This document shows positions 1 to 56,381 of a stretch of DNA of 64,000 bases, piece after piece (positions within the stretch are counted from its first letter, which is position 1; every line of letters begins with the position of its first letter). Below the pieces are notes generated by a model. The model was not told the origin of the DNA and did no database searches. It saw only the letters and a program-made list of their open reading frames with translations. Made by a program: the position numbers and the translations under genes. The stretch covers positions 1,958-65,957 of the forward strand of contig NHFA02000032.1 of assembly GCA_002170315.2 (NCBI GenBank), given 5' to 3'. Origin of the DNA: Euryarchaeota archaeon TMED99. GTDB taxonomy: Archaea > Thermoplasmatota > Poseidoniia > Poseidoniales > Poseidoniaceae.

Positions 1-108
1 GGTGGACGTTCTGCAATGGCTCGTCGCCTTGGTCTTGGCGAGAAAAAGAAACTCGATGTCGATGTATTGGATGCAGCATTAGTCGATGATGTGGTTGATG
101 CTTGGTAA
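1..108 (+). CDS. 3' end of an unidentified protein-coding gene (truncated by window edge)
   Basis: Frame 1 is open from the window edge to TAA at 106-108 (..ARRLGLGEKKKLDVDVLDAALVDDVVDAW*). Only 35 codons are visible, so no family call is possible. Confidence 0.3.
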   Translation, partial: GGRSAMARRLGLGEKKKLDVDVLDAALVDDVVDAW

Positions 109-145
109 ACAACAATACAAAGAAGCCCCTTGCAGTGGGAGTTGC

Positions 146-622
146 ATGGTCAACTATTGGCTGATGAAATCTGAACCCCATGTCTATCCGTTTGAGCAGC
201 TTGTAGCAGATGGCTCAACCCATTGGGACGGCGTTCGTAATTATCAGGCAAGAAACATGATGCGTGACGATATGAAAATGGGTGATTTTGTTCTCTTTTA
301 TCATTCAAACTTCAAACCCCCTCATGTTGTTGGCGTGGCACGTGTTTGCAAAGAGGGCTATCCAGACCACACTGCGCAAGACTCTACTTCGAAATATTTT
401 GACCCGAAAGCAACACCTGAGAATCCACGTTGGATGATGGTCGATATCGAAGCAGTCACAGCATTCACGAACATCGTACCATTGGAAGACGTCCGCAACA
501 ATCCTGCATGTGAAGACATGCTGTTGGTTCGTAAAGGTCAACGTCTGTCTGTTCAACCCGTTGATGAACAGCATTTTGATACTGTTTTAGCAATGGGCGG
601 TCTTTCTCGTAAAGACCTATGA
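146..622 (+). CDS. EVE (PUA-like) domain protein
   Basis: ORF 86-622. The internal ATG at 146 gives MVNYWLMKSEP. The motifs WDGVRNYQARN, GDFVLFYHS, VVGVARV and PRWMMVDIE are typical of the EVE / thymocyte-nuclear-protein-1-like fold. Confidence 0.75.
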   Translation: MVNYWLMKSEPHVYPFEQLVADGSTHWDGVRNYQARNMMRDDMKMGDFVLFYHSNFKPPHVVGVARVCKEGYPDHTAQDSTSKYFDPKATPENPRWMMVDIEAVTAFTNIVPLEDVRNNPACEDMLLVRKGQRLSVQPVDEQHFDTVLAMGGLSRKDL

Positions 623-661
623 GTAATTTCAAACACATCAGGATTATGGGAGCGTGTTAGA

Positions 662-1873
662 ATGTCAACAGAACAGATTCCAGTCGCTGCTCGAGCATCG
701 AGCATCGAGTACGCAATTCGTGATGTCGTTGTTCCTGCAACAGCACTTGAGCAACAAGGTCATGAGATTCTCAAACTCAATATTGGAGACCCCATTGCAT
801 ACCCCGGTTTGCCTACTCCAACGCATATGGTTGATGCATATGTCAAGGCACTGCAAGATGGTCGCAATGGGTATTCTCCATCCTATGGACTGCCAGAACT
901 TCGTGAAGCGATTGCGAAGGACGAACGTCGAAAGGGGTGGGATGCACAGAGTTCAGACATCTATGTTTGCCATGGAGTAACCGAAGCATTACAGATTCTT
1001 TTTGCCTCAGTTCTCTCCGAAGGTGACACAGTCTTGGCCCCTGGTCCACATTATCCACCTTACATGGCCTATCCACAAATGTATGGCGCTCAAACTATTG
1101 AATACAAATTGAAACCCGATGATGGATGGAAACTGGATCTTGAAGATATTGAATCAAAGATGGATTCCTCAGTCCGTCTTCTTGTCTTGATTAATCCGAA
1201 CAATCCATGTGGGAGTGTTGCGGGTGAAGAAGACATAACCAAACTCCTCAGCATAGCTCGAAAATGGCCGAACTGCATGATTGTTGCAGACGAAATCTAT
1301 GACGGACTTGATTTTACAGGATTACAAAAAAGTGTGGCAAGTCTTTCAAAAGACGTTCCAGTTTTTTCCTTGAACGGAGTCTCAAAAGTCTACTATGCAC
1401 CAGGATGGCGAATCGGATATATGGCAATTCATGATCCGACTGCTCGATTGTTGAATGTCCGTGATGGAATTGAGCGAATGCTTCGTTCACGTTTGTGTGC
1501 TTCAACACCTGCTCAACTTGGATATCTAGCGGGGCTTGAATCTGATCGTTCATGGATGGATGTATATTCGGACAAAGTTTTGGCACAACGTGATGTATGT
1601 GTCGAAAGAATTTCACAAATCGAAGGTCTTGAAGTCCAATCTTCAGGTGGCGCATTCTACATGTTTGTTCGATTAACAGATCCGAAGTGGGCGAATGATG
1701 ACAAACAATTTGTTCTTGATTTGTTGCATGAAGAGCATGTTTTGGTCGTTCACGGTAGTGGTTTTTCTCCAACTTTGGGTAAGGGCCATTTCCGAATCGT
1801 CTATTTGCCGAATATTGATGTTCTTAATGAAGCATTCAATCGAATTGAATCTTTTTTGCTCCGCCATCGGTGA
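662..1873 (+). CDS. class I PLP-dependent aminotransferase, alanine aminotransferase-like
   Basis: 403 aa, ATG start. It is collinear, from memory, with the archaeal (Pyrococcus-type) AlaAT: SIEYAIRDVV, LNIGDP, GLPELREAI, INPNNPCG, the PLP lysine in NGVSKVYYAPGWRIGY, and HVLVVHGSGF..GHFRIVYLP. Confidence 0.85.
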   Translation: MSTEQIPVAARASSIEYAIRDVVVPATALEQQGHEILKLNIGDPIAYPGLPTPTHMVDAYVKALQDGRNGYSPSYGLPELREAIAKDERRKGWDAQSSDIYVCHGVTEALQILFASVLSEGDTVLAPGPHYPPYMAYPQMYGAQTIEYKLKPDDGWKLDLEDIESKMDSSVRLLVLINPNNPCGSVAGEEDITKLLSIARKWPNCMIVADEIYDGLDFTGLQKSVASLSKDVPVFSLNGVSKVYYAPGWRIGYMAIHDPTARLLNVRDGIERMLRSRLCASTPAQLGYLAGLESDRSWMDVYSDKVLAQRDVCVERISQIEGLEVQSSGGAFYMFVRLTDPKWANDDKQFVLDLLHEEHVLVVHGSGFSPTLGKGHFRIVYLPNIDVLNEAFNRIESFLLRHR

Positions 1874-1929
1874 AGAGAATGAATTATGTCGTCGATGCTT
1901 TGATGACTTAGAGTGATACCGAGTAATTC

Positions 1930-4900
1930 ATGGGCAAGACGGGTCTAAGGCTCCGTGTATTGATTTGGTCTTCTTTGATGGCCTTTTTTTTCGTCCAGCC
2001 AGCATCCGCAAATCAAGTTGCAGATTTCAATCAATTCACCTTTGATTCTTTCGTACCAATATTGATTGCGTTCGCTATTGCAATCCCGGTTTGGAGAATA
2101 TTCATTCCGAATCAACTTGCCAATCTCCAGGTTGCATTTGAAATTGATGATGACCTCTATGAAGTTCACAAAATTACTGGGAGTGTTTCAGATGCCCGGA
2201 TCCTCCTCAAACAAGGCGCAGTAGGTTACGGAATCGGTCTTTACATGATGGGAATGACCGGTGTTCTCATTCTCATAATGGAGTTATTATTCGACCCTGA
2301 AGTCTACTTTGAAGCAAGTCTGCTTCTTGCAGGTATTCTCATTCTAATACCCGTTCTCATTTCCCCATGGGAAACATTGAACGCACAAATCCTTGGTAAG
2401 GGCAACAATAAATCAAAGCGGAACAGAATAACAGGCTTTGTTCGAAGAATCATAACTATTTCTTTGCTCATCGGTGCTACGATTGCCACCTTGTTGTATG
2501 GTATTCAGAGTAGTCCACAAAACACTCTTTCGCCTGTATGGCTTGCAGCTGGAATGTTGACCTTCATGTCACCCACAATTATGGCCTATGGTCGTATTAT
2601 GGGTGCTTCTTGGAACATGCTCATCATTAACAAGTGGCGGACTTCGAACGGGAAACCAAACCCGATAGACCCCGATAAACCACGATTCCTTAATCGATTG
2701 TTTTCACTGGTTCTTGTTTTGTTCTTGATTACGATGCCATTGACTGCATTAAATGGAATTGTCACAGTGTTTTATGTCTTATTCAACAAGCCCGCTAATG
2801 CCGAAGAGGTTCTCAATTTCGGTGGAATCATCGGCCATTCTATTTACCAAAGAATCGACATTATTTCCGAGTTACTCTTCCATTGGCAATTTATCAAGGC
2901 ACTTCCTCAGTTCTTGTCTCTCTATCTTTCTCTGAACATTGCTATTGTTGGTCTTGCGTTCATATTTGAACTAACTCGCAACCTTATCCTAGGAGGGCAA
3001 ACATTCGGAGGCCTCTTTGGCGTGACGCTTGATTCACCCCGAGAAATTCGAACTGAAGTGAAAGCACAAACTCGGCAACTCACCTTTGCGTTTGCAGGAT
3101 TTTCAGGCTACACAGTCCTTCTTCTGGTTTTGGTTTGCTACAAAGAATTTGGAGACCTCATGCCTTACACAGACGTGCTCGAACGTAACGGATTCGACGA
3201 GGGTAATCGATTATTGACAACGTGGATGTTCATCGCTTTCGGACAGGCTGTATTTTTATTCACCTGGCTTCTTTCTATTATTCGGTATTCTCCATTGCTC
3301 AAACTTCGTTTTGACTTGAACCCTGATGAACGCCGTGAAGGTGCAGTTAAGTTCGCTGGAGGCGATTGGATGCGTGAGTTGGTTGATGAGGCTGCAATTC
3401 GAGAAGACCTCGATGGACTCATTCAATTCCAACGTCGTTCAATAGAGGGCGATTCTGCCCTTGTCCGTCATGAAAAAGCTCGCGCTCACATGTGGGAACT
3501 CGCACTTCGTGGTTTGTGGCCTAAGGCAATAGAAGAAGCCCGTAAAGTACTTGCTCAGGCAGGTGGGGAAGACGACGTTGCACGAATGATTGTCGCAGTG
3601 GGATATATGGCCTCAAGAAGATTAGATGCTGCACGTGAAGCACTTCATGGATTACAACAGCCTGAAGGCTATGATGAGCCGGAACTCTTAGCATTCGTTT
3701 GTGAATGGCTGGACCCTTGGCAAGGCATGGTCACTGACGATGACTTTTGGGATTGGGAAAATAATTCCTGCATCGACCACCTTCAAGGTTTGATGAGAAT
3801 GTTACGTGGTTGGCAACCTTCTCCGAATGATGACTCTATACACAACGATCGATTGACAAGAGTTGCCCAACTTTCGATGATTTCGCTCATGCGTGCTCAA
3901 AGAAAACATGACGATGCGCTCGAACTCTCACTGAAATTAATTCGGGATGAGCCAACTGGAGTTCGCCCACGAATTGCTGCATCACTCTGTCTCATCGATA
4001 AAGGGGATTGGCACAGCGCACGTTCAATTTTAACAGAACTCAAAGAAAGTGACCCACAAGACCCTCGGGTGCTCGCATTGAGCAGTATTCTCGGCCAAGT
4101 TGTCGATGAAGAAGAAATGGAAGTTTCTCTTGCTGTTGGTAAAGGTAAGAAAATGAGGAAATGGATTAATTCCGCACCAGTCAATGCAATTGCAGGTCTC
4201 ATGGTGCGTGGTGGAACAGATGAGGCGATTAATGCGAACATTCTGATTGCATCACATGAGGCCACACGTAGGGGTATGCCACCAATTTATCGCGCAAGTA
4301 TTCTAAATACTATATTCCATCTTCTTGTTCTCATTCCTACATGGATTGTTCTCGGAATTTATGTATCGCAAGAAGTCGGCCAAGGCCAAGGAGTTTTAGT
4401 GGTTCTTACTCTGTTCATGGTTCAATTTGGTAGCAAGCGTTTCAATCGCCAACAGCAACGCGTTATTCGTCATCGTGATCAAAAGGCATTGATTGCATAT
4501 TCAAAACGTATGAAGAGATTCAAAGTTCAGCCTGAAAGGGAAAATATTCCTGTTGGCACACACCTGTTACTCTCTGGAATGTTGGTCACCGTCAATGGAG
4601 TTGTGCTCGATGTTGGCATGCCTGGATGGATGACTGAACGCCTTCCACGAGATTCTGAAAAGTCAGTCAAAGCCCGATTAAAGCGTCAATCAAAAGCGAT
4701 GTCAAAGTCTCGCCCTCCTCGACTACAACCACTCGGTGAAGGTTGGTGGTTAAAGCGTCCGAAGGAAGATGGCGCTGATGTTCCTGCACTTGAACGACTT
4801 ATCGGTGCTGTTGCTTACCGAGGCCGACCACAATACATACAGAAGAAAACTGGTAAACAATCCTCACGAGTTGGTTCGAACAAAGCCAAAAACCGACCTG

Positions 4901-5088
4901 TTTCAGAAATTAACCTGGACCGACGAGGTATTCCTACCAACACGCGAATTTCTGAACGTTCAAGGCGACATCCAGGGCCATCGTCAACAGTTAACGTCGG
5001 AAGTAAGATTCCAGGTCCAAATGTTCGTCCGTCTACTCTTCGAGATGCTACAAACGATGACGATGATGATTTCCTTTCATTTAACTGA
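1930..5088 (+). CDS. large polytopic membrane protein with a central TPR-like helical region and a basic/Pro-rich tail
   Basis: 1052 aa. It has an N-terminal signal-like segment and about 10 hydrophobic helices in residues 40-470. A soluble helical-repeat region (~470-760) is followed by 2 more TM helices. The tail is Lys/Arg/Pro-rich and ends DDDDDFLSFN. I recognise no enzymatic motif. Confidence 0.6.
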   Translation: MGKTGLRLRVLIWSSLMAFFFVQPASANQVADFNQFTFDSFVPILIAFAIAIPVWRIFIPNQLANLQVAFEIDDDLYEVHKITGSVSDARILLKQGAVGYGIGLYMMGMTGVLILIMELLFDPEVYFEASLLLAGILILIPVLISPWETLNAQILGKGNNKSKRNRITGFVRRIITISLLIGATIATLLYGIQSSPQNTLSPVWLAAGMLTFMSPTIMAYGRIMGASWNMLIINKWRTSNGKPNPIDPDKPRFLNRLFSLVLVLFLITMPLTALNGIVTVFYVLFNKPANAEEVLNFGGIIGHSIYQRIDIISELLFHWQFIKALPQFLSLYLSLNIAIVGLAFIFELTRNLILGGQTFGGLFGVTLDSPREIRTEVKAQTRQLTFAFAGFSGYTVLLLVLVCYKEFGDLMPYTDVLERNGFDEGNRLLTTWMFIAFGQAVFLFTWLLSIIRYSPLLKLRFDLNPDERREGAVKFAGGDWMRELVDEAAIREDLDGLIQFQRRSIEGDSALVRHEKARAHMWELALRGLWPKAIEEARKVLAQAGGEDDVARMIVAVGYMASRRLDAAREALHGLQQPEGYDEPELLAFVCEWLDPWQGMVTDDDFWDWENNSCIDHLQGLMRMLRGWQPSPNDDSIHNDRLTRVAQLSMISLMRAQRKHDDALELSLKLIRDEPTGVRPRIAASLCLIDKGDWHSARSILTELKESDPQDPRVLALSSILGQVVDEEEMEVSLAVGKGKKMRKWINSAPVNAIAGLMVRGGTDEAINANILIASHEATRRGMPPIYRASILNTIFHLLVLIPTWIVLGIYVSQEVGQGQGVLVVLTLFMVQFGSKRFNRQQQRVIRHRDQKALIAYSKRMKRFKVQPERENIPVGTHLLLSGMLVTVNGVVLDVGMPGWMTERLPRDSEKSVKARLKRQSKAMSKSRPPRLQPLGEGWWLKRPKEDGADVPALERLIGAVAYRGRPQYIQKKTGKQSSRVGSNKAKNRPVSEINLDRRGIPTNTRISERSRRHPGPSSTVNVGSKIPGPNVRPSTLRDATNDDDDDFLSFN

Positions 5089-5139
5089 CCCATTGTTTGC
5101 CATCAATGAGTTCAAAGACCGACTTCACAAACAGTGTTT

Positions 5140-6453
5140 ATGCAGCGCGAACGTGGAACTTGGTCTCCGAGTCAGTCAACTCTTTCAAATGCTCAAGCGG
5201 TATTAGATGCAACTGCAGCAAGTGGTGATTTGTATCGCAACGGGTTAGGTATGATTGCTTCTGAGAATATCGTATCGCCAATGGTTCAAAAAATAGTTTC
5301 AAGTGACCTTCATGGCAGATATGCAGAAGGTCTACCAGGTAAGCGATATTATCAAGGTTGTAATGATTTTGACACCATCGAAAGTCTTGGAATTGAGTTG
5401 GCTCAAAAGGTATTCAATGCTCCATTTGCGAATATTCAATCAACTTCAGGAACCGTTTCGAACATAGCCGCACTCAAAGCATTGGCCAAGCCAGGAGATC
5501 AAATCACCGCTGTGTCAACCGCTGATGGGGGGCATATCTCTCACGCTCGAATGGGTGCTGTTGGACTTCGTGATCTTGATTTGTCAACTTATCCTTGGGA
5601 TGAAGAACGAATGGAACCCGATGTTGATGGTGCTTGTGCGCTGATTCGTGAACTTGAACCAAAGGTTGCACTTGTTGGCCAATCGGTTTTCTTGTTCCCA
5701 ACTCCACTTCGCGAAATTGCGGACGCTGCCCATGAAGTCGGTGCTTCGGTCATGTATGATGGAGCCCATGTATTGGGCTTGATTGCTGGTGGATGCTTTC
5801 AAGATCCATTGCGTGAAGGTGCAGACCTCATGACCGGTTCATCACACAAAACATTCCCGGGGCCACAGGGTGGTTTCTTACTTTCATCGAGTGAAGACCC
5901 GACATTCCAACGTAAGTTGAATACTGCGATTTTCCCTGGAGTTTGTTCTTCATATCACCTTCACCACGTCGCTGGAAAAGTAGTCGCTTTGGCTGAGTTT
6001 GAAGAATATGGTACTGCATATGCGCATGATATTGTTGCCAATGCCCAAGAATTTGGTTCGGCAATGGCTGCTGAAGGTTTTGATGTTCTTGCAGAGTCTC
6101 GAAATTACACTGAATCACACCAAGTACTCACACGTCATGGTGATACCGATTCAGGCGCAGGTGCAAAAGCTGCGTTGTTGCTTGAAGAGGCTGGAATAAT
6201 TACCAATATGAACATGCTTCCAGGCGATACAAAAGCGATGACTCCATCTGGTCTTCGACTCGGCGTGCAAGAATTGACTCGTGTAGGAATGGGAACACTG
6301 GAAATGCAAGAGGTTGCAAAATTGTATGCGCGAGTTCTGCTTCACTCTGAAGACCCTAAGTCTGTTCAGAAAGATGTTGCTCAACTCAAGTCTAATTTCC
6401 AAACGATTCGTTATTGCTTCAATGAAGAGAATGCGAACGGCTACCCCTTTTGA
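5140..6453 (+). CDS. glyA: serine hydroxymethyltransferase
   Basis: Motifs LGMIASENIVSP, HGRYAEGLPGKRYYQGC and the PLP-lysine motif GSSHKTFPGPQGG. GTG at 5134 or ATG at 5140 are both possible starts. Confidence 0.9.
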   Translation: MQRERGTWSPSQSTLSNAQAVLDATAASGDLYRNGLGMIASENIVSPMVQKIVSSDLHGRYAEGLPGKRYYQGCNDFDTIESLGIELAQKVFNAPFANIQSTSGTVSNIAALKALAKPGDQITAVSTADGGHISHARMGAVGLRDLDLSTYPWDEERMEPDVDGACALIRELEPKVALVGQSVFLFPTPLREIADAAHEVGASVMYDGAHVLGLIAGGCFQDPLREGADLMTGSSHKTFPGPQGGFLLSSSEDPTFQRKLNTAIFPGVCSSYHLHHVAGKVVALAEFEEYGTAYAHDIVANAQEFGSAMAAEGFDVLAESRNYTESHQVLTRHGDTDSGAGAKAALLLEEAGIITNMNMLPGDTKAMTPSGLRLGVQELTRVGMGTLEMQEVAKLYARVLLHSEDPKSVQKDVAQLKSNFQTIRYCFNEENANGYPF

Positions 6454-6462
6454 GAGAGAAAA

Positions 6463-7539
6463 ATGACCAACGAAGACAGCCCACCATCTTCAACGAAACT
6501 CTTTGAAGCGCTTCAGAAAGAATTTACCTGTTTCAATGATGGCTCCGTTCGTGACTCACGAGGAATTCTCAATACAGTTTGGAAAGTGAGTGATTTCCAG
6601 CGCTGGTGGCTTGCTTTTGAAACGCATGCAGGTGTGCCGCTCGGACGAAAGTTAATGAATGCAGCAACAGATCAAGAGGAGTATTTTTTGAATGAGTCAT
6701 CACTTTTCGATGTTGGCTGGTTCATGAAGAAACTCAAAGTGAACGCTCTTTTGACTCAACGTTGGCAAAACATGGGTTGGGGGCAGTATTCTCTTTCGAA
6801 AAATACAGTTCTTTCTCACCTACTTGCACCTGTATGTAGTGGATTTGCTCTCGCAACTCTTGAAACTTTGAAGTCTCATCGATTCAAAGTCCAATGGAGG
6901 CAAGTCTCGAATGTTCAAATTCAACTCGAAACCAGTGATGATCCTCGCTCAATATCCGTTGCTCCACCGCCACCTCAGTTTCATTGGGATTCAAAACCAA
7001 TTGATTCTCTACCTCAACAAAACAAGGGGCTTGCTCTTGATTTGCAGCTGAATGAGTATGGTTGGTCACATTCCGGTGAGCACTGTTTTCTCTTACCAAT
7101 CGGTGTTTTGCAAAGGTTGTTTGAGTCTGTAAACATGCAAGGTCTTCAACTGCCTTCAGATGTGTTAGATGCTTGGGAGTTTCCAGAGGAATTCAATTCT
7201 TCGCATGCGCTCAGTCTTGTTCTTTCCTCTCTTGCAATGAATGACATGGTGTCTCAAAGTGAACGACCAATTTACATTCAAAATTTGAAAAGTTGGAGTC
7301 AACTCGTTGAAGCATATATGGTTCCTTTCGGTTTTGGGTCGTTTGCTAGCATTCGTGCACTTGATGAACAAGGAGGCGTTGAATTTGAACTCCGCCCTTC
7401 AGCACTTTTGCCACTAACTCTCGGATATTTGATAGCATTTTGGCAACGTGGAATAGGTCGGAAGGCAAGGGTGAAAATGGCCTCAAAGAATGAAAATTGG
7501 TCGTTTCAAATTACATCGTTTTTAGACTATGCAGAGTGA
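6463..7539 (+). CDS. hypothetical protein, possibly a tandem V4R-like small-molecule-binding fold
   Basis: 358 aa, ATG start, no TM helix. Two halves each end in a G-rich/Cys segment (MGWGQYSL..APVCSGFALATLE and FGFGSFASI..LTLGYLIAFWQ) that resembles V4R domains. This is a weak call made by eye. Confidence 0.45.
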   Translation: MTNEDSPPSSTKLFEALQKEFTCFNDGSVRDSRGILNTVWKVSDFQRWWLAFETHAGVPLGRKLMNAATDQEEYFLNESSLFDVGWFMKKLKVNALLTQRWQNMGWGQYSLSKNTVLSHLLAPVCSGFALATLETLKSHRFKVQWRQVSNVQIQLETSDDPRSISVAPPPPQFHWDSKPIDSLPQQNKGLALDLQLNEYGWSHSGEHCFLLPIGVLQRLFESVNMQGLQLPSDVLDAWEFPEEFNSSHALSLVLSSLAMNDMVSQSERPIYIQNLKSWSQLVEAYMVPFGFGSFASIRALDEQGGVEFELRPSALLPLTLGYLIAFWQRGIGRKARVKMASKNENWSFQITSFLDYAE

Positions 7540-50666: not shown

Positions 50667-50897
50667 GTGTCAGTGCGTGTCAATTGGGACCGCACACCTG
50701 TATCAGTGCATCATGATTCGAAAGATGTTCTTGAAGCACTTATTCTCCACTTGAAAAACATCCACGGAATTCGAAAACGTTCTCTGGTCATGCAAGACCG
50801 CGAAGAAGGAGGATTTCTCTTCTTTCTTTACCAACCATGCAATCCTCGTTGGATTTTAGAATACGAATATCGCTCTGATGTTCAAGAGGAGGAATGA
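50667..50897 (+). CDS. hypothetical 76-aa protein, translationally coupled to trmJ-like gene
   Basis: A GTG at 50667 lies 8 nt after a GAGAGG purine tract. The stop overlaps the next ATG (ATGA at 50894-50897). No family is recognised. Confidence 0.35.
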   Translation: MSVRVNWDRTPVSVHHDSKDVLEALILHLKNIHGIRKRSLVMQDREEGGFLFFLYQPCNPRWILEYEYRSDVQEEE

Positions 50898-51739
50898 GCA
50901 TGGGTGACCGGCAAGGACTCCCTCTTCCACAGAGGACCTATTCTCTTCACATCGTACTTGTAGGCGCCTCACATCCTGGCAACTTAGGAGCAATTTGTAG
51001 AAGTATGTTGAATTACGGTTTCGCATCGTTGCGTTTGGTGAATCCAGTTTGTTCACCTGATGATATTGAAGCACGGAATAGAGCGAAGCATGCAGGCCGG
51101 ATACTGGATTCATGCCAAGTATACGATTCGCTCGAAGATGCTACATCTGATTGTTCCCTCACCGTAGGAACTTCAGGAAAGCGCGAGATTGGTACGAAAA
51201 CAACTTTTCGGCATTTCATGTATCCGTGGGAATTTGCAGAGCGCCTTGAGGATTTCACCGAATCAGTATCACTGGTTTTTGGTGAAGAAGGAAAAGGTCT
51301 CTCAACAGACGATCTTGGACTTTGTGATTTTCTTGTCACTTTGCCTACTTGGGAAGGCTACCCAATTGCCAACCTCTCTCATGCAGTGAATACTTGTGTG
51401 TACGAACTTCATCGCACAACTGTTCATTCGAAGCAGGGTTCAGATCCAGGTATACCTGATATCGTTCCTCTTGAGCGGAGTTTGAATCCAACACTGAAGA
51501 GTATTCTCCAGCAGGGTATAATGGAAATGGGCCAAGCCTTACCAGGTAATGATGACAGAAAACATAGTTTTTCACACAACCTTCGCAGAGGAATAATGCG
51601 TTCAATGCCAACTGAAGATGAAGCAACTCGGCTCATTGGTGGTATTCTTGATGCCACTACTGCACTGCAATATGTCGCTGGAAATAGCGAATGGAGAAGT
51701 AAACGCAGACGCAAAATCACTCGTAATGAAGAAGAGTGA
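50894..51739 (+). CDS. SpoU/TrmH-family RNA 2'-O-methyltransferase (TrmJ-like)
   Basis: Motifs IVLVGASHPGNLGAICRSMLNYGF, LVFGEEGKGLS and LPT...YPIANLSHAVNTCVYEL (SPOUT knot motifs), plus a ~90-aa C-terminal extension. Confidence 0.8.
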   Translation: MSMGDRQGLPLPQRTYSLHIVLVGASHPGNLGAICRSMLNYGFASLRLVNPVCSPDDIEARNRAKHAGRILDSCQVYDSLEDATSDCSLTVGTSGKREIGTKTTFRHFMYPWEFAERLEDFTESVSLVFGEEGKGLSTDDLGLCDFLVTLPTWEGYPIANLSHAVNTCVYELHRTTVHSKQGSDPGIPDIVPLERSLNPTLKSILQQGIMEMGQALPGNDDRKHSFSHNLRRGIMRSMPTEDEATRLIGGILDATTALQYVAGNSEWRSKRRRKITRNEEE

Positions 51740-52189
51740 TTATGGAATCCATGAAGCTGTGCTTTTTGGAGTTTCACGTACATGCATTGCAACAAGTCGC
51801 AATCGATTCCCATATGCTGTTGCAATGTGCGGTTCAACCTGTTCAAAAGCCCATTTTGCTAGATTCTCAGCAGTTGGAATAAAAGGTACGACAACAGTTC
51901 TGTGTCCATCACCCATTTCAGCACAAGCTCTTAGAGCAGCATCGTCTCCTTCATAGACCACGAAAGCGTGATCAACAATGTCGTGTACGTATGTCATTAA
52001 AATTTGACTGACATCTGAAAAATCCATGAGCATTCCTTCTTCACTTACGCCAGATTCTTGTACTGTGTCACCTTCAATTTCGGCTTCAAATCGATAACGG
52101 TGACCGTGCATGTGCCTACACTTACTCTTGTGATTTGGAACACGGTGCCCAGTATCTGTCTCTACGTATCTTCGAATTCTTGTTGTCAT
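51740..52189 (-). CDS. queD: 6-carboxy-5,6,7,8-tetrahydropterin synthase (QueD/PTPS family)
   Basis: The zinc/catalytic motif is CRHMHGHRY, preceded by HRVPNH. The protein is 149 aa. It has an ATGA overlap with queC. Confidence 0.85.
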   Translation of the reverse strand: MTTRIRRYVETDTGHRVPNHKSKCRHMHGHRYRFEAEIEGDTVQESGVSEEGMLMDFSDVSQILMTYVHDIVDHAFVVYEGDDAALRACAEMGDGHRTVVVPFIPTAENLAKWAFEQVEPHIATAYGNRLRLVAMHVRETPKSTASWIP

Positions 52190-53337
52190 TCTTCTCTCTC
52201 CTTGAAATCTAATGATGCAGAATTAATGCAGTAACGTTGGCCACCAAATGCCAAAGGCCCATCTTCAAAGATGTGTCCAAGATGAGCGTCGCATTTTGAG
52301 CATTGAACTTCGATTCGTTGCATCCCATGACTGTTATCTTGGATGTGCTTTATTCCCGCACGTGGATGTTCTGTGTGGAAAGAAGGCCAACCGCATCCTG
52401 AATCAAATTTCATATCGGAAGTAAACAGGAGGTGGTTACAGCATATGCAATAGTAATCACCGGTTCTTTTCTCATCCCAATAGATGCCTGTAAAAGCACG
52501 CTCAGTACCACTTTCTCGTGTGACATAATACTGCTCTTCTGTGAGTCGTTGTCGGTATTCTTTGTCATTGTGCACTCTTTCAACCTCCAAAGCATTCGCT
52601 AGAACTTCTTCCCACGAAGTTTGATACTCGACAGGGTCAGCAAGGTCGAGTTTGTGAAATGCGAGTATTCGTTCAATGTCAGCGCCACTTCGGCCAGAAC
52701 TCCTCCCTTCTTTGTCGGGGTTATATGACGTGTTCGTGTTGGCAAAAACAGTGTCAAAATTGAGTCCAAGTTTATCGGTTGCATTCAGTGCGTCTTTCAA
52801 TATCGACACTTTATCTCCTTCGAGGTAAGGTAACTTGAATTCAACATTTTCACTTTCCCAATTTCCTATCGCAAAAGCATGTCCGAGAGCATTGTAAAAT
52901 TCTGGACGACAATCTGGATAGATTTCGTGGTCACCGGAATGGACACCTAATGCAATCTCTACTCTGCAATTTTCCCTTGAGGCTACCGAGAGAGCATATC
53001 CGTAAACAATTGAAGCAAATATTGCATTTCTGTTCGGAACGACGGTTGATTTCATCTGTTCTGCCTCATAGTGACCTTCTGGAATATCATCTCCGCCTTC
53101 GATCAAAGAACTTTCAAATATATTCATTGCACTGCTTAGGTCGACGATTTTATGGGTGACATGAATATTTTTTGATTGCAGATATTCGATATTCATCTGA
53201 GCACGTTCCAGTTCCACACTGTGCTTTTGACCATACTTGTACGAGATACAATCGACTTTGTATCCATCAGCAAGTAAGCTCATGAGTAAGGCAGTTGAAT
53301 CCATTCCCCCTGAAAGGGCCATTACCGCACGTTGCAT
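52186..53337 (-). CDS. queC: 7-cyano-7-deazaguanine synthase (QueC) fused to a methionine-R-sulfoxide reductase (MsrB) domain
   Basis: The N-terminal half carries ALSGGMDS (PP-loop), YGQKHSVELERA, VVPNRNAIF and IYPDCRPEF. The C-terminal half carries YYCICCNHLLF, GCGWPSF, CSKCDAHLGHIF and QRYCINS. The frame is continuous across the junction. Confidence 0.85.
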   Translation of the reverse strand: MQRAVMALSGGMDSTALLMSLLADGYKVDCISYKYGQKHSVELERAQMNIEYLQSKNIHVTHKIVDLSSAMNIFESSLIEGGDDIPEGHYEAEQMKSTVVPNRNAIFASIVYGYALSVASRENCRVEIALGVHSGDHEIYPDCRPEFYNALGHAFAIGNWESENVEFKLPYLEGDKVSILKDALNATDKLGLNFDTVFANTNTSYNPDKEGRSSGRSGADIERILAFHKLDLADPVEYQTSWEEVLANALEVERVHNDKEYRQRLTEEQYYVTRESGTERAFTGIYWDEKRTGDYYCICCNHLLFTSDMKFDSGCGWPSFHTEHPRAGIKHIQDNSHGMQRIEVQCSKCDAHLGHIFEDGPLAFGGQRYCINSASLDFKEREE

Positions 53338-53996
53338 TAGTCAACACCCATCCATTTGTGTGTTTGTAGACTCAACCTCCAAGGAGGTGATTCTTTGACG
53401 ACTGCTTCTGTTAATGCGAAGTTTTTGCCATTCCACTCTACAGTTTCAGAATCCATGTAGCAAGGTTGGAGAAAGTGGTGCGTGAATCCATCCAGCAGTC
53501 CATCATAAAGCGAGAGCTCTTGACCGACATATACACACTTCAATTCATCTCCTGTTCTTTGTCGAATTTTCACACCAGGATACATTTGGTCTTTCGGAGA
53601 AATACAGATCCAATCCAACAGTCCTTCAGGTATTGCAATTGTACCGTTTGATTCACACGAAAGATGATATCCGCGTGCTTTGAATAGGCGATGCAAAGGC
53701 CATAAATCATTGAGCATTGGTTCTCCTCCTGTGAAGATAATTCTTTTCGATGGATATTTCATTACTTCACCCAAGATATCCACTGCCGACATTTCGTCAA
53801 ATGTTTCAAAATCGGTGTCGCACCATTCGCATTGAAGGTTACATTTACCAAAACGGATGAATACATGCGGTATTCCTGCATGTGCTCCCTCTCCTTGTAC
53901 GGAATGAAAAATCTCTACTATTTTGTAAACCATGGCGAGGTCAGATGCAGAATCAACCGGATGAGTACCAGACAATTCGCATGCAGATTCCAGCAT
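53337..53996 (-). CDS. queE: 7-carboxy-7-deazaguanine synthase (radical SAM QueE)
   Basis: Motifs EIFHSVQGEGAHAGIPHVFIRFGKCNLQCEWCDT and IIFTGGEP. Confidence 0.85.
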   Translation of the reverse strand: MLESACELSGTHPVDSASDLAMVYKIVEIFHSVQGEGAHAGIPHVFIRFGKCNLQCEWCDTDFETFDEMSAVDILGEVMKYPSKRIIFTGGEPMLNDLWPLHRLFKARGYHLSCESNGTIAIPEGLLDWICISPKDQMYPGVKIRQRTGDELKCVYVGQELSLYDGLLDGFTHHFLQPCYMDSETVEWNGKNFALTEAVVKESPPWRLSLQTHKWMGVD

Positions 53997-54005
53997 AGAA
54001 ACACC

Positions 54006-54575
54006 TCAGAGTGGACGTGAATGAATTAACTGCATCAATTCTTGACGTGGTTCTGCCTTCTCAAAAAACACCCCACGCATGGCTGATGTTGTCATTACTG
54101 AATTTTGTTTTCTCACACCTCTGCAGCGCATACAGCCGTGTGAAGCCTCAATGATAACGGCAGTTCCAAGTGGATTCAAATATTTTTCAAGATCATCAGC
54201 TACACCCTTGGTAATACGTTCTTGATTTTGCAATCGGTGTGCATGAGCGTCCACTATTCGTGCTAACTTACTGATACCAACGATTCTGTCAACTGGAATA
54301 TATGCAATGTGTGCTCTGCCGCTAAAGGGTTGAAGATGATGTTCACATGTCGAATGAAATTCAATATCTCTTAGCAATACTATACCGTCATATCCTTCAC
54401 CATTGAAGGTCGATTGAAGGAGTTCTTCAGGGTCGACTTTGTAGCCTGAAAAAATCTCATCCCACGAATCAATGACACGTTGAGGCGTTTTTTCTAAACC
54501 CTCGCGCTGTGCGTCACCCTCGAGGTATTCCAGCAATGTTTTCACTGCTTCTTCCGCCTGATTCTTTGTCACCAT
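54006..54575 (-). CDS. folE: GTP cyclohydrolase I (FolE type 1)
   Basis: Motifs FHSTCEHHLQPFSGRAHIAYIP, ISKLARIV, RLQNQERIT and EASHGCMRCRGV. The start is ATG at 54575 or TTG at 54584. Confidence 0.9.
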   Translation of the reverse strand: MVTKNQAEEAVKTLLEYLEGDAQREGLEKTPQRVIDSWDEIFSGYKVDPEELLQSTFNGEGYDGIVLLRDIEFHSTCEHHLQPFSGRAHIAYIPVDRIVGISKLARIVDAHAHRLQNQERITKGVADDLEKYLNPLGTAVIIEASHGCMRCRGVRKQNSVMTTSAMRGVFFEKAEPRQELMQLIHSRPL

Positions 54576-54580
54576 GTCAA

Positions 54581-54745
54581 TCAATTCCTTCCATGCCGTG
54601 CATCGATTTCGTCCAATTGGTCGAGCAGTTTTCTGCAGGCTGTACGCACTGCATCAGCCAGACTGACAAACTTGTGTTCATCTCCAACATGCTTGCGAAG
54701 GTCTTCAACCAACTCAGCAGGCATATCCAATGAAATCTTCGGCAT
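54581..54745 (-). CDS. 54-aa ribbon-helix-helix (CopG/Arc/MetJ-like) protein, first gene of the preQ0 operon
   Basis: Not in the ORF track because it is under 60 aa. My hand translation gives MPKISLDMPAELVEDLRKHVGDEHKFVSLADAVRTACRKLLDQLDEIDARHGRN*. The N-terminal beta-strand KISLDMP followed by two helices fits the RHH pattern. The stop lies 5 nt before the folE ATG. Confidence 0.55.
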   Translation of the reverse strand: MPKISLDMPAELVEDLRKHVGDEHKFVSLADAVRTACRKLLDQLDEIDARHGRN

Positions 54746-54767
54746 GATTCCTCCTCACGTCAATTGC

Positions 54768-54776
54768 ATATAAATA
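54768..54776 (-). promoter_or_regulatory. TATA box (minus-strand TATTTATAT) about 27 nt upstream of the RHH ATG, implying a leaderless or near-leaderless operon transcript
   Basis: Read directly from the sequence. The spacing from the box centre (about 54772) to the ATG at 54745 equals the usual archaeal TATA-to-TSS distance. Confidence 0.3.
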
Positions 54777-54783
54777 TTCTCAG

Positions 54784-54801
54784 AGTAATACTGCAGTAAT
54801 A
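54784..54801. promoter_or_regulatory. AGTAATA direct repeat (11-bp phasing) containing the 10-bp palindrome TACTGCAGTA; candidate operator
   Basis: AGTAATA occurs at 54784-54790 and 54795-54801, and the palindrome at 54789-54798. The site lies in the divergent intergenic region just upstream of the TATA box of the RHH/preQ0 operon. Confidence 0.25.
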
Positions 54802-54872
54802 TTCAAAATTGTGTCAAAATATGCTCGAATCATCAATTCTAAAGCCAATGTTCAAAGAACCCCGTCGGTGCC

Positions 54873-56381
54873 ATGTTGTTGATGTCTACACTTGTTGCTG
54901 ATGCTTTCGCTCATCTCGAAAGTCTACGAAACCCTGCAATTCACCGTGATACTGTCGGCCTCAAAGACTCGGTCATTCGACAATTCTTATCGCACGATGA
55001 GGGTCTTTCATCAGCGATTGCTGAGGCAGTTGCTCGACGAGACACCCTTTCTCAGGAGTTTGGAGAAGAAATGATGTCTCTTCCCGAATCGGAATTGGTC
55101 AAAATCCTTCAATCTGATTACATTAATTTCTATCCACCTGCCACTGTGAATCCATATGTGGCGCTTGCCGCACGTGGCCCTTGGATTATCACGACACATG
55201 GAGCAGTTCTTCACGACAATGGAGGGTATGGTATGCTTGGCAGTGGCCATGGACCCACTGATGTCATCGCAGCAATGTCTGGCAATTGGGTTATGGCGAA
55301 TGTAATGACACCGTCATACAGTCACAAACGCCTTGCCAACCGATTGCAGCGAGAACTTGGCCATACACGTGGCTCCTGCCCATTTACTCGATTTATTTGT
55401 ATGAACAGTGGTTCTGAATCCGTTACCGTCAGTTTACGTATTGCTGATGTCAATGCTCGAAAAATGACTGGTCCAGGCGGCAGGCATGAAGGGAAGGAAA
55501 TCATGCTCATGGCCGTAGAGAAAGCATTCCATGGTCGAACAGACCGTCCTGCGCAAATATCTCACTCATGTAAGCCAGCATATGACAAAAATTTAGCAAC
55601 TTTCAGAGACCGTGAAAACCTCATTCTCGTTCCAGCAAATGATGTTGCAGCACTTGAAGCAGCTTTTGCAAAAGCGGAGGCTGACAACCAATTCATTGAA
55701 TTAATGGCGATTGAACCTGTTCAAGGAGAAGGTAATCCAGGATCGTGCGTGGAGCGTTCGTTTTACGATGCTGCTCGTCGATTAACTTTGGAGCATGGCT
55801 CAATGTTGCTCGTCGATTCAATACAAGCTGGTATTCGAGGCCAGGGTTGTCTTTCTGTCATAGATTACGAAGGTTTCCAGGATGCTGAATGCCCAGATAT
55901 GGAGACGTGGTCAAAAGCACTGAATGCAGGCCAATATCCTCTATCAGTACTTGGTTTGAACGACCGTGCTTCTGAAAATTATGTCGTTGGAATTTATGGC
56001 AATACAATGACGACGAATCCTCGAGCCTTAGAAACAGCATGTGCTGTTCTTGACCTCATCACTCCTGAACTAAGAGAGAATATTCGAGCACGAGGCGTTG
56101 AATTTGTTGAAAAATTGTATTCTCTTGCTGTTGAAATGCCTGGAATCATCACTCAAGTTCAAGGAACTGGATTGTTGTTAAGCGCTGAACTTCAACCAAC
56201 AAAATTCCCAGTGGTGGGCTTTGATGCTGTCGAAACTTGGTGCCGTAAGCATGGCCTAGGCGTAATTCATGGCGGAACGAACGCCCTACGTTTCACTCCT
56301 CACTTTGGTATTACTTCGGCAGAGATTGACCTCATTATCGATGTTGTCCGCGATTCTTTGGAACACTTCGCAAATGCCTAA
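54873..56381 (+). CDS. class III PLP-dependent aminotransferase with a long N-terminal extension
   Basis: Motifs MNSGSESVTVSLRIA, FHGRT, EPVQGEGN, LLVDSIQAGIRGQG and WSKALNAG (lysine position). The catalytic core is preceded by about 110 extra residues. Confidence 0.8.
   Translation: MLLMSTLVADAFAHLESLRNPAIHRDTVGLKDSVIRQFLSHDEGLSSAIAEAVARRDTLSQEFGEEMMSLPESELVKILQSDYINFYPPATVNPYVALAARGPWIITTHGAVLHDNGGYGMLGSGHGPTDVIAAMSGNWVMANVMTPSYSHKRLANRLQRELGHTRGSCPFTRFICMNSGSESVTVSLRIADVNARKMTGPGGRHEGKEIMLMAVEKAFHGRTDRPAQISHSCKPAYDKNLATFRDRENLILVPANDVAALEAAFAKAEADNQFIELMAIEPVQGEGNPGSCVERSFYDAARRLTLEHGSMLLVDSIQAGIRGQGCLSVIDYEGFQDAECPDMETWSKALNAGQYPLSVLGLNDRASENYVVGIYGNTMTTNPRALETACAVLDLITPELRENIRARGVEFVEKLYSLAVEMPGIITQVQGTGLLLSAELQPTKFPVVGFDAVETWCRKHGLGVIHGGTNALRFTPHFGITSAEIDLIIDVVRDSLEHFANA

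Follow-up and report, generated by a model that had tools for sequence, protein, structure and literature searches.

A QueC-MsrB fusion in the preQ0 operon of Poseidoniales and a clade of QueC proteins lacking the zinc-ligand cysteines

The window analyzed here is a 64,000-nucleotide stretch of Euryarchaeota archaeon TMED99 (Poseidoniales; contig NHFA02000032.1, positions 1,958 to 65,957), and it contains an operon for synthesis of 7-cyano-7-deazaguanine (preQ0) in which one open reading frame (ORF) joins a QueC domain to an MsrB/SelR methionine sulfoxide reductase domain. The QueC domain has no cysteines at the four positions that bind zinc in canonical QueC, raising the question of whether the fusion is genuine and whether the loss of one zinc site is connected with the acquisition of another, as an earlier note on this DNA had proposed. 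We consider it probable that this is a bifunctional Poseidoniales protein composed of a zinc-free QueC and an ordinary MsrB, formed by merging of operon neighbors, with the zinc loss being a separate matter. The features of the ORF are as follows.

52186..53337, minus strand: queC-msrB fusion ORF, a single continuous frame of 383 amino acids (aa), with a 100%-identical public protein (P0001)
52564..53337, minus strand: QueC domain, residues 1-258, including a subfamily-specific C-terminal helix that is present in unfused relatives too
53296..53313, minus strand: PP-loop with the ATP pyrophosphatase motif SGGMDS (residues 9-14)
52678..52728, minus strand: former zinc knuckle SYNPDKEGRSSGRSGAD, residues 204-220, located by MAFFT alignment
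52546..52614, minus strand: junction helix (residues 242-264), in which the last helix of QueC and the first helix of MsrB are continuous
52201..52545, minus strand: MsrB/SelR domain, residues 265-379, as delimited by Pfam SelR

Both domains far exceed their Pfam family thresholds, so chance similarity is not a concern. A Pfam search, which the earlier note had recommended, matches QueC (PF06508) at residues 3-229 (143.6 bits, E 7.8e-42; cutoff 22) and SelR (PF01641) at residues 265-379 (165.2 bits, E 6.2e-49; cutoff 24.9), and the NCBIfam MsrB model TIGR00357 scores 170.7 bits against a cutoff of 113.05. The claim that one frame encodes both domains is thus upheld, and every motif quoted in its support is located in the 383-aa translation: SGGMDS (9-14), YGQKHSVE (35-42), VPNRN (100-104), and YPDC (140-143) in the QueC part, and CICC (297-300), GCGWPSF (314-320), CSKC (346-349), and RYCINS (368-373) in the MsrB part. 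The length assigned to the QueC domain is supported by unfused relatives of 256-270 aa, which can be aligned to residue ~253.

The MsrB domain is complete, as originally described: its two CxxC pairs, its catalytic cysteine, and its resolving cysteine are all in place. Aligned to Escherichia coli MsrB (PDB 6sym; sequence match E 2.4e-41), C297, C300, C346, and C349 are the zinc ligands, C315 is the resolving cysteine, and C370 is the catalytic cysteine. Among 120 family clusters, all have the two CxxC zinc pairs and 119 keep the catalytic and resolving motifs. The domain is modeled by AlphaFold2 with a predicted local distance difference test score (pLDDT) of about 90, and Foldseek superimposes it on E. 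coli MsrB (6sym_B) with a target-normalized TM-score of 0.89, a root mean square deviation of 1.3 Å over 125 columns, and 53% identity. In two fused clusters (P0025 and P0109) the C-terminal ends turn into other MsrB-type sequence (DGPQPTCDRYCINS... and DGPKPTGLRYCINSASLRF..., respectively), a switch that may come from chimeric assembly or from recombination with a different MsrB.

The QueC domain has lost its four-cysteine (Cys4) zinc site, in agreement with the earlier reading of the sequence. Cysteines are present in the fusion protein at positions 30, 124, 143, 297, 299, 300, 315, 346, 349, and 370, leaving none at all in residues 144-296. In a MAFFT alignment with ~60 Cys-containing QueC representatives, the four zinc-ligand columns are occupied by S204, S214, S217, and D220, and the same columns read CCCC in every canonical sequence. 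A phmmer search of the PDB pairs 'TCYNG' of Pectobacterium QueC (2pg3) with 'TSYNP' of the fusion protein, showing that Y205 is retained; misalignment does not account for the missing cysteines. The expected pattern had been given as C-x8-C-x2-C-x2-C. The Cys4 arrangement is correct and a published survey also writes it as C(x)8CxxCxxC, but the closest Cys-containing relatives have C-x9-C-x2-C-x2-C, and the x8 spacing does not apply to them.

The residues that replace the cysteines are far from random. Among the 120 closest clusters, 118 have Ser and two have Cys at the first former ligand position, the second is Ser or Asp, the third is Ser or Thr, and the fourth is Asp in all 120; the two clusters with Cys have it at the first position only. 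The surrounding segment (residues 201-227) is among the most conserved stretches of the fusion protein, with T201, T203, Y205, P207, D208, G211, R212, G215, G218, D220, E222, R223, L225, A226, and F227 invariant and S204, S213, S214, S217, and I224 nearly so. This conservation argues that the Ser/Ser/Ser/Asp segment is a selected replacement structure rather than a product of decay. A Cys at the first former zinc position (TCY...), with S/S/D at the others, occurs both in a fused cluster (P0090) and in an unfused Marine Group III locus (L047), and either has been regained by a single back-substitution or was never lost.

How widely the fusion occurs was examined by searching 5.8 billion proteins grouped into clusters at 90% identity. 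There are at least 120 fused clusters, 66-100% identical to the window protein and all with both Pfam domains, and some are represented on up to 25 contigs. They derive from ENA, JGI, Logan, NCBI, and Tara assemblies, and their public names describe one half only, either 'MsrB' or '7-cyano-7-deazaguanine synthase'. As a consequence of these half-names, one activity is lost from metabolic reconstructions of Marine Group II (MGII) archaea. The names of the best-matching public proteins point to metagenome-assembled genomes of Candidatus Poseidoniaceae/Poseidoniales, in line with an MGII origin of the window. One genome per GTDB species was also scanned with a profile of the Cys-less QueC domain, yielding 80 loci of which 79 are readable; genes were translated and the operon proteins of the window were mapped onto each locus. 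The Cys4 site is absent from all 79 readable loci, and the 80 loci fall into the following states.

38 loci: fused queC-msrB, 361-388 aa
20 loci: adjacent separate ORFs, with queC of 256-262 aa followed by msrB in another frame, nine of them with a 4-nucleotide ATGA-type overlap
10 loci: no msrB in the operon (seven MGII and three Marine Group III), with queC followed directly by queD
11 loci: Planctomycetota (Pirellulaceae or Mariniblastus), with a stand-alone queC, 56-60% identical
1 locus: interrupted (L038, PANM01000013.1), with the queC ORF ending at 91 aa

At the interrupted locus, the QueC match continues past the 91-codon stop and is followed by an MsrB match in the position seen in short fusions, and the stop is probably a sequencing error or the mark of a pseudogene. 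Another locus, on a contig named 'Phycisphaerae bacterium isolate MED703' (L033, NZFX01000056.1), has the full folE-queE-queC::msrB-queD-SpoU synteny at 54-80% identity, and is probably a mis-binned archaeal contig within a bacterial metagenome-assembled genome.

The 11 Planctomycetota loci (L075-L077, L079-L082, L084-L086, and L089) include some on contigs of 1.7 Mb and 4.0 Mb. Their four former zinc positions read S/H/T/D, and there is no folE, queE, queD, or msrB within 4 kb of queC. Because these stand-alone Cys-less proteins are 56-60% identical to the archaeal ones, their sequences suggest that zinc-free QueC has been transferred across domains.

Zinc-free QueC is also common in viruses. 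Of the 80 best IMG/VR loci, 75 are Cys-less, with either an archaeal-type 'GRSSGKSGADVER' or a second type, 'SDYKSASSVER', and none of the 80 has MsrB. The nearest QueC-domain representatives at 50% identity are mostly short metagenomic proteins, several of them on virus-like contigs; one viral relative lies in a queD-queE-folE-queC-dpdA cluster adjoining a ribonucleotide reductase gene, and others lie among small hypothetical genes. Flavobacterium phage immuto_2-6A also codes for a Cys-less QueC, and its DNA is fully modified, with 345,000 fdPreQ1 per 10^6 nucleotides by mass spectrometry, a base made from preQ0 via preQ1 (PMC10516641). This phage is the best available in vivo indication that a zinc-free QueC is catalytically competent, although the host QueC may contribute.

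Two further features of the viral-type loci are of note. Two virus-like Logan contigs (L005, at 243-6899, and L006; P0148) carry a Cas12f1/TnpB-like gene and a ParB-N6/N4 methyltransferase gene, followed by queD-queE-folE-queC(Cys-less)-dpdA and ribonucleotide reductase. In addition, a group of long viral or metagenomic QueC homologues of 420-734 aa (P0121 [L007, 8232-10208], P0123, P0139, P0141, P0144, P0147, and P0154) match the query in two parts, split at query residues ~137-143, between HSGD and YPDC. Pfam recognizes QueC, Hint/Intein_splicing, and QueC in that order in P0121, which thus contains an intein within the QueC active-site region, and a GIY-YIG/NUMOD endonuclease gene is nearby.

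Apart from the zinc site, the QueC half has the character of a bona fide QueC. A 2026 survey of PF06508 defines the QueC signature as SGGxDS, YxQxHxxE, VPxRN, YPDC, and a C(x)8CxxCxxC zinc motif, with an essential Tyr within the zinc region (Y189 in E. coli) and frequent operon linkage to queD and queE; Y35, R99, and Y131 are also essential in E. coli QueC (PMC13329287). SGGMDS is invariant in 54 family sequences, YxQxHxxE, VPxRN, YPDC, and the knuckle Tyr (Y205) are all invariant in the family alignment, and Met12 of the PP-loop is nearly invariant across the zinc-free clade. The predicted QueC fold matches 2pg3 and 3bl5 with TM-scores of 0.72-0.78. These data, together with the Pfam match, speak against a different PP-loop family for the N-terminal half. 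A defense-type QueC (QatC or Cap9) is rejected on the basis of the canonical motifs, the folE, queE, and queD neighbors, and weak scores, with the PADLOC defense-type QueC model giving a 44-bit match to the N-terminal part (best stretch residues 2-69) and the Cap9 structure 9nto matching with an E value of 0.012.

The genomic neighborhood is organized with the fusion ORF inside a leftward-transcribed folE-queE-queC(msrB)-queD operon, placing it in the preQ0 pathway as had been proposed.

54006..54584, minus strand: folE (GTP cyclohydrolase I), with which the preQ0 operon begins, and syntenic in Poseidoniales; Pfam GTP_cyclohydroI E 8e-68, NCBIfam FolE 237 bits, above cutoff
53337..53996, minus strand: queE (radical-SAM 7-carboxy-7-deazaguanine [CDG] synthase); Pfam Radical_SAM, best NCBIfam model TIGR04508 queE_Cx14CxxC (136.5 bits, under the cutoff of 240)
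51740..52189, minus strand: queD (CPH4 synthase); Pfam PTPS E 3.6e-26, TIGR03367 82.3 bits against a cutoff of 89.25, with the CxxxHGH signature (CRHMHGH)
50894..51739, plus strand: SpoU-family methyltransferase gene, Pfam SpoU_methylase E 1.5e-23; converges on queD, directly adjoining it, and keeps this place in most Poseidoniales loci
54873-56381, plus strand: class-III aminotransferase gene, divergent from folE and syntenic in the loci closest to the window
86-622, plus strand: EVE-domain protein gene (PF01878 E 9e-55), at the start of the window and 50 kb from the preQ0 operon

The overlaps behind the translational coupling on both sides can be read directly in the DNA, the queE stop and queC start overlapping as TAATG (53335-53339) and the queC-msrB stop and queD start as ATGA (52186-52189), so that the linkage to queD and queE seen in canonical QueC is present here with overlapping stop and start codons. 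The folE-queE-queC-(msrB)-queD order is kept throughout the Poseidoniales loci examined. The SpoU methyltransferase gene is a conserved neighborhood gene and, from its position, is only a candidate pathway member. EVE domains are readers of modified bases. A scan of 51500-55000 for promoters and terminators found sites no more numerous than in shuffled sequence, and is uninformative for an archaeal host because the consensus used is bacterial.

The fused proteins are of two junction classes. The long class, which includes the window protein, is of about 375-388 aa. In the short class (361-369 aa) the last helix of QueC passes directly into the first helix of MsrB, and MsrB has another loop ahead of its catalytic Cys; the two classes carry different MsrB subtypes. 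The fusion therefore occurred either twice or once with a later deletion at the junction. Unfused relatives retain the C-terminal helix where fusion occurs, and in the unfused species the queC stop and msrB start are located at the position of the junction helix. In a neighbor-joining tree of QueC domains (50%-identity representatives), the 13 sampled fused sequences are monophyletic with a bootstrap of 78/100, but the deeper nodes, which bear on the order of Cys loss and on its source among archaea, Planctomycetota, and viruses, have bootstraps of ≤14/100. Fused and adjacent states are intermixed in a 79-locus QueC tree (whose supports are not readable), whereas an MsrB tree gives a cleaner separation of the two fused classes from each other and from the adjacent class. 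These trees lead us to claim two junction types rather than to count fusion events. Pairwise distances of QueC and of MsrB are weakly correlated (Pearson 0.23, Spearman 0.04), and this comparison was not used.

These observations fit a simple account. The QueC part (residues 1-258) would use ATP to make preQ0 from CDG and ammonia, preQ0 being the compound from which archaea form the archaeosine of their tRNA (PMC5699537); the MsrB part (~125 residues) would act as a zinc-containing two-cysteine enzyme, reducing methionine-R-sulfoxide with thioredoxin. The fusion would have arisen by loss of the stop/start overlap between translationally coupled queC and msrB in a folE-queE-queC-msrB-queD operon. 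The two activities are presumably independent in mechanism, with the fusion serving mainly to fix co-expression. Loss of the Cys4 site would be a separate event, and judging from its distribution it is most likely the older one, because it is both wider than the fusion and independent of it.

Several points weigh against this account. The NCBIfam QueC equivalog TIGR00364 scores 139.5 bits, slightly below its cutoff of 150.3. Zinc is said to be required for canonical QueC (PMC13329287), and in QatC, another member of the QueC family, mutating the four Cys abolishes function (PMC13639016). The msrB and queC states refer to the operon loci, and a second, canonical QueC or a second MsrB may be present elsewhere in these genomes. 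Of the 68 readable archaeal loci, 58 have msrB within the preQ0 operon, and there are two junction classes, which hints at selection for co-expression or proximity that accidental fusion does not explain. Finally, the AlphaFold2 model (mean pLDDT 88.3; predicted template-modeling score [pTM] 0.78) has an unbroken inter-domain helix at residues 242-264 (pLDDT about 88-93), and this continuous helix together with the pTM suggests that the arrangement of the two domains is fixed.

The last two points are also the ones that favor functional coupling, in which MsrB is kept beside or fused to QueC for a role in the pathway, whether by repairing oxidized Met in QueC (SGGMDS) or in the oxygen-sensitive QueE, or by linking the synthesis of preQ0 and archaeosine to redox conditions in sunlit surface water. 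The position of msrB between queC and queD, fused or with an ATGA-type overlap, the two fused junction types, the near-invariance of Met12, and the modeled helix are all in keeping with it, and since chemistry does not explain the retention and the two junctions, coupling is possible, but of low probability. Against it, a zinc-free QueC of the SGGMDS type occurs with no msrB nearby in ten species of MGII/MGIII, in the Planctomycetota, and in all of the viral relatives, there is no known chemistry connecting Met-sulfoxide reduction with conversion of CDG to preQ0, operons of streamlined genomes often combine unrelated housekeeping genes, and the fused MsrB has all the features of a general-purpose enzyme. 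A broader version, in which queC-msrB placement and merging reflect a functional partnership (cis repair of the SGGMDS Met, or redox gating in surface water rich in reactive oxygen species) and the zinc-free knuckle is part of the same oxidative or low-zinc adaptation, is a shade less likely again. An operon-wide zinc-sparing adaptation in particular is weak as a candidate, as the window sequences still have CEHH...C in FolE and CxxxHGH in QueD, motifs that we take to bind zinc, and the MsrB domain brings in a further Cys4 site.

The remaining explanations are considerably less probable. That the N-terminal domain is a diverged paralogue which is not a preQ0 synthase, for example one that stops at the amide ADG, as has been proposed for phage QueC*, or that uses another substrate, is very unlikely; the hallmark zinc motif is missing and TIGR00364 is under its trusted cutoff, the PF06508 scaffold has taken on new functions on several occasions (PMC13329287), and phage QueC* is a 'proposed ADG synthase' (PMC10516641), but the other experimentally defined catalytic motifs are invariant here and have been lost in the repurposed clusters (QatC lacks YxQxHxxE, VPxRN, and YPDC [PMC13329287]). 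Also contrary to it are the complete folE-queE-queC-queD operon, a hallmark context of canonical QueC, the weak and N-terminal match of the PADLOC model, and the preQ1-derived base of the immuto phage, which requires the nitrile preQ0. More doubtful still is the proposal that the MsrB zinc ribbon stands in structurally for the lost QueC knuckle, with zinc-site loss and MsrB gain being linked as the earlier note supposed. The two co-occur in the window protein, and the loss of function in QatC zinc-site mutants (PMC13639016) might lead one to expect some compensation, but 41 of the 79 readable genome loci (the 20 adjacent, 10 msrB-free, and 11 Planctomycetota loci) and the 75 viral loci carry a Cys-less QueC that is not fused, and these orthologues largely refute it. 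Because marine archaeal, planctomycete, and viral Cys-less QueCs exist without MsrB, the MsrB zinc is not a replacement; moreover, one phage with such a QueC makes preQ0-derived DNA bases, the strongly conserved Ser/Ser/Ser/Asp segment indicates a stable local structure, and MsrB is attached ~40 residues beyond the former zinc site in the primary sequence, via a long helix. An assembly or gene-calling artefact, with two genes joined by a sequencing error, has a negligible probability; separate genes with a 4-nucleotide overlap do occur in some species and a 1-nucleotide error could mimic a fusion, but the same in-frame architecture recurs in the at least 120 clusters from many independent assemblies and in 38 species-representative genomes, and the junction is a conserved and confidently modeled helix. 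The fusion of a zinc-free QueC with an ordinary MsrB by merging of neighboring genes thus remains the reading that we favor.

The QueC and MsrB families are already known, and the fused proteins are public under their half-names. A full-text literature search found no paper on a QueC-MsrB/SelR fusion or on a zinc-free canonical QueC, and the 2026 QueC survey, which treats the zinc motif as a hallmark, mentions neither (PMC13329287). The architecture was unfamiliar to the writer of the earlier note, and it does appear to be unpublished, yet it is common in public data. Neither the large clade of QueC proteins that are canonical but for the zinc site nor the presence of msrB inside the preQ0 operon appears to have been described, and these two are a more valuable lead than the fusion itself. 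The clade, whose members come from marine archaea of high abundance, from marine Planctomycetota, and from hundreds of viral contigs, keeps the other catalytic motifs despite the view of zinc as a hallmark, and it makes testable whether the QueC zinc is purely structural and how replaceable it is, with Ser/Ser/Ser/Asp and Ser/Asp/Ser/Ser as natural solutions. With msrB fused in some species, adjacent in others, and missing from still others, this one operon offers a clean natural series for gene fusion via loss of a stop/start overlap.

Compared with canonical QueC, the fusion protein shares the PP-loop Rossmann fold, the SGGxDS, YxQxHxxE, VPxRN, and YPDC motifs, the essential Tyr of the knuckle region, and an operon with queD and queE, and it differs in lacking the zinc-ligand Cys, in its extra C-terminal helix, in the fusion to MsrB, and in falling slightly under the TIGR00364 cutoff. 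The QueC of phage immuto_2-6A is 44% identical over the whole QueC domain and C-terminal helix, and also has SGGMDS and no zinc Cys, but its replacement residues are S/D/S/S (within 'SDYKSASSVER'), its knuckle loop contains an insertion, MsrB is absent, and it serves modification of DNA rather than tRNA. Known Cap9 proteins are minimal, at ~190 aa, and the defense types have QatB or CD-NTase partners that are absent from the neighbors here.

The closest architectural parallel on the QueC side is Gat-QueC of Crenarchaeota and phage 9g, in which a QueC-family domain is also joined to a second enzyme domain in 7-deazaguanine metabolism (PMC5699537). In Gat-QueC, however, the partner is an N-terminal GATase that feeds nitrogen to the same pathway, whereas MsrB is C-terminal and performs unrelated redox-repair chemistry; no GATase domain is found in Pfam or NCBIfam scans of the fusion ORF. 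On the MsrB side, the two CxxC pairs, the GCGWPSF resolving Cys, and the RYCINS catalytic Cys are shared with E. coli MsrB (6SYM) and human MSRB3 (6Q9V), and in the fused MsrB the loop leading to the catalytic Cys is slightly longer than in the E. coli enzyme (DGPLAFGGQRYC versus DGPQPTGERYC). MsrB is often fused in the MsrA-MsrB and Trx-MsrA-MsrB (PilB) proteins too (PDB 3E0M, 5FA9, and 7E43 are among the matches), but the partners there belong to the same repair pathway as MsrB, and QueC lies outside it.

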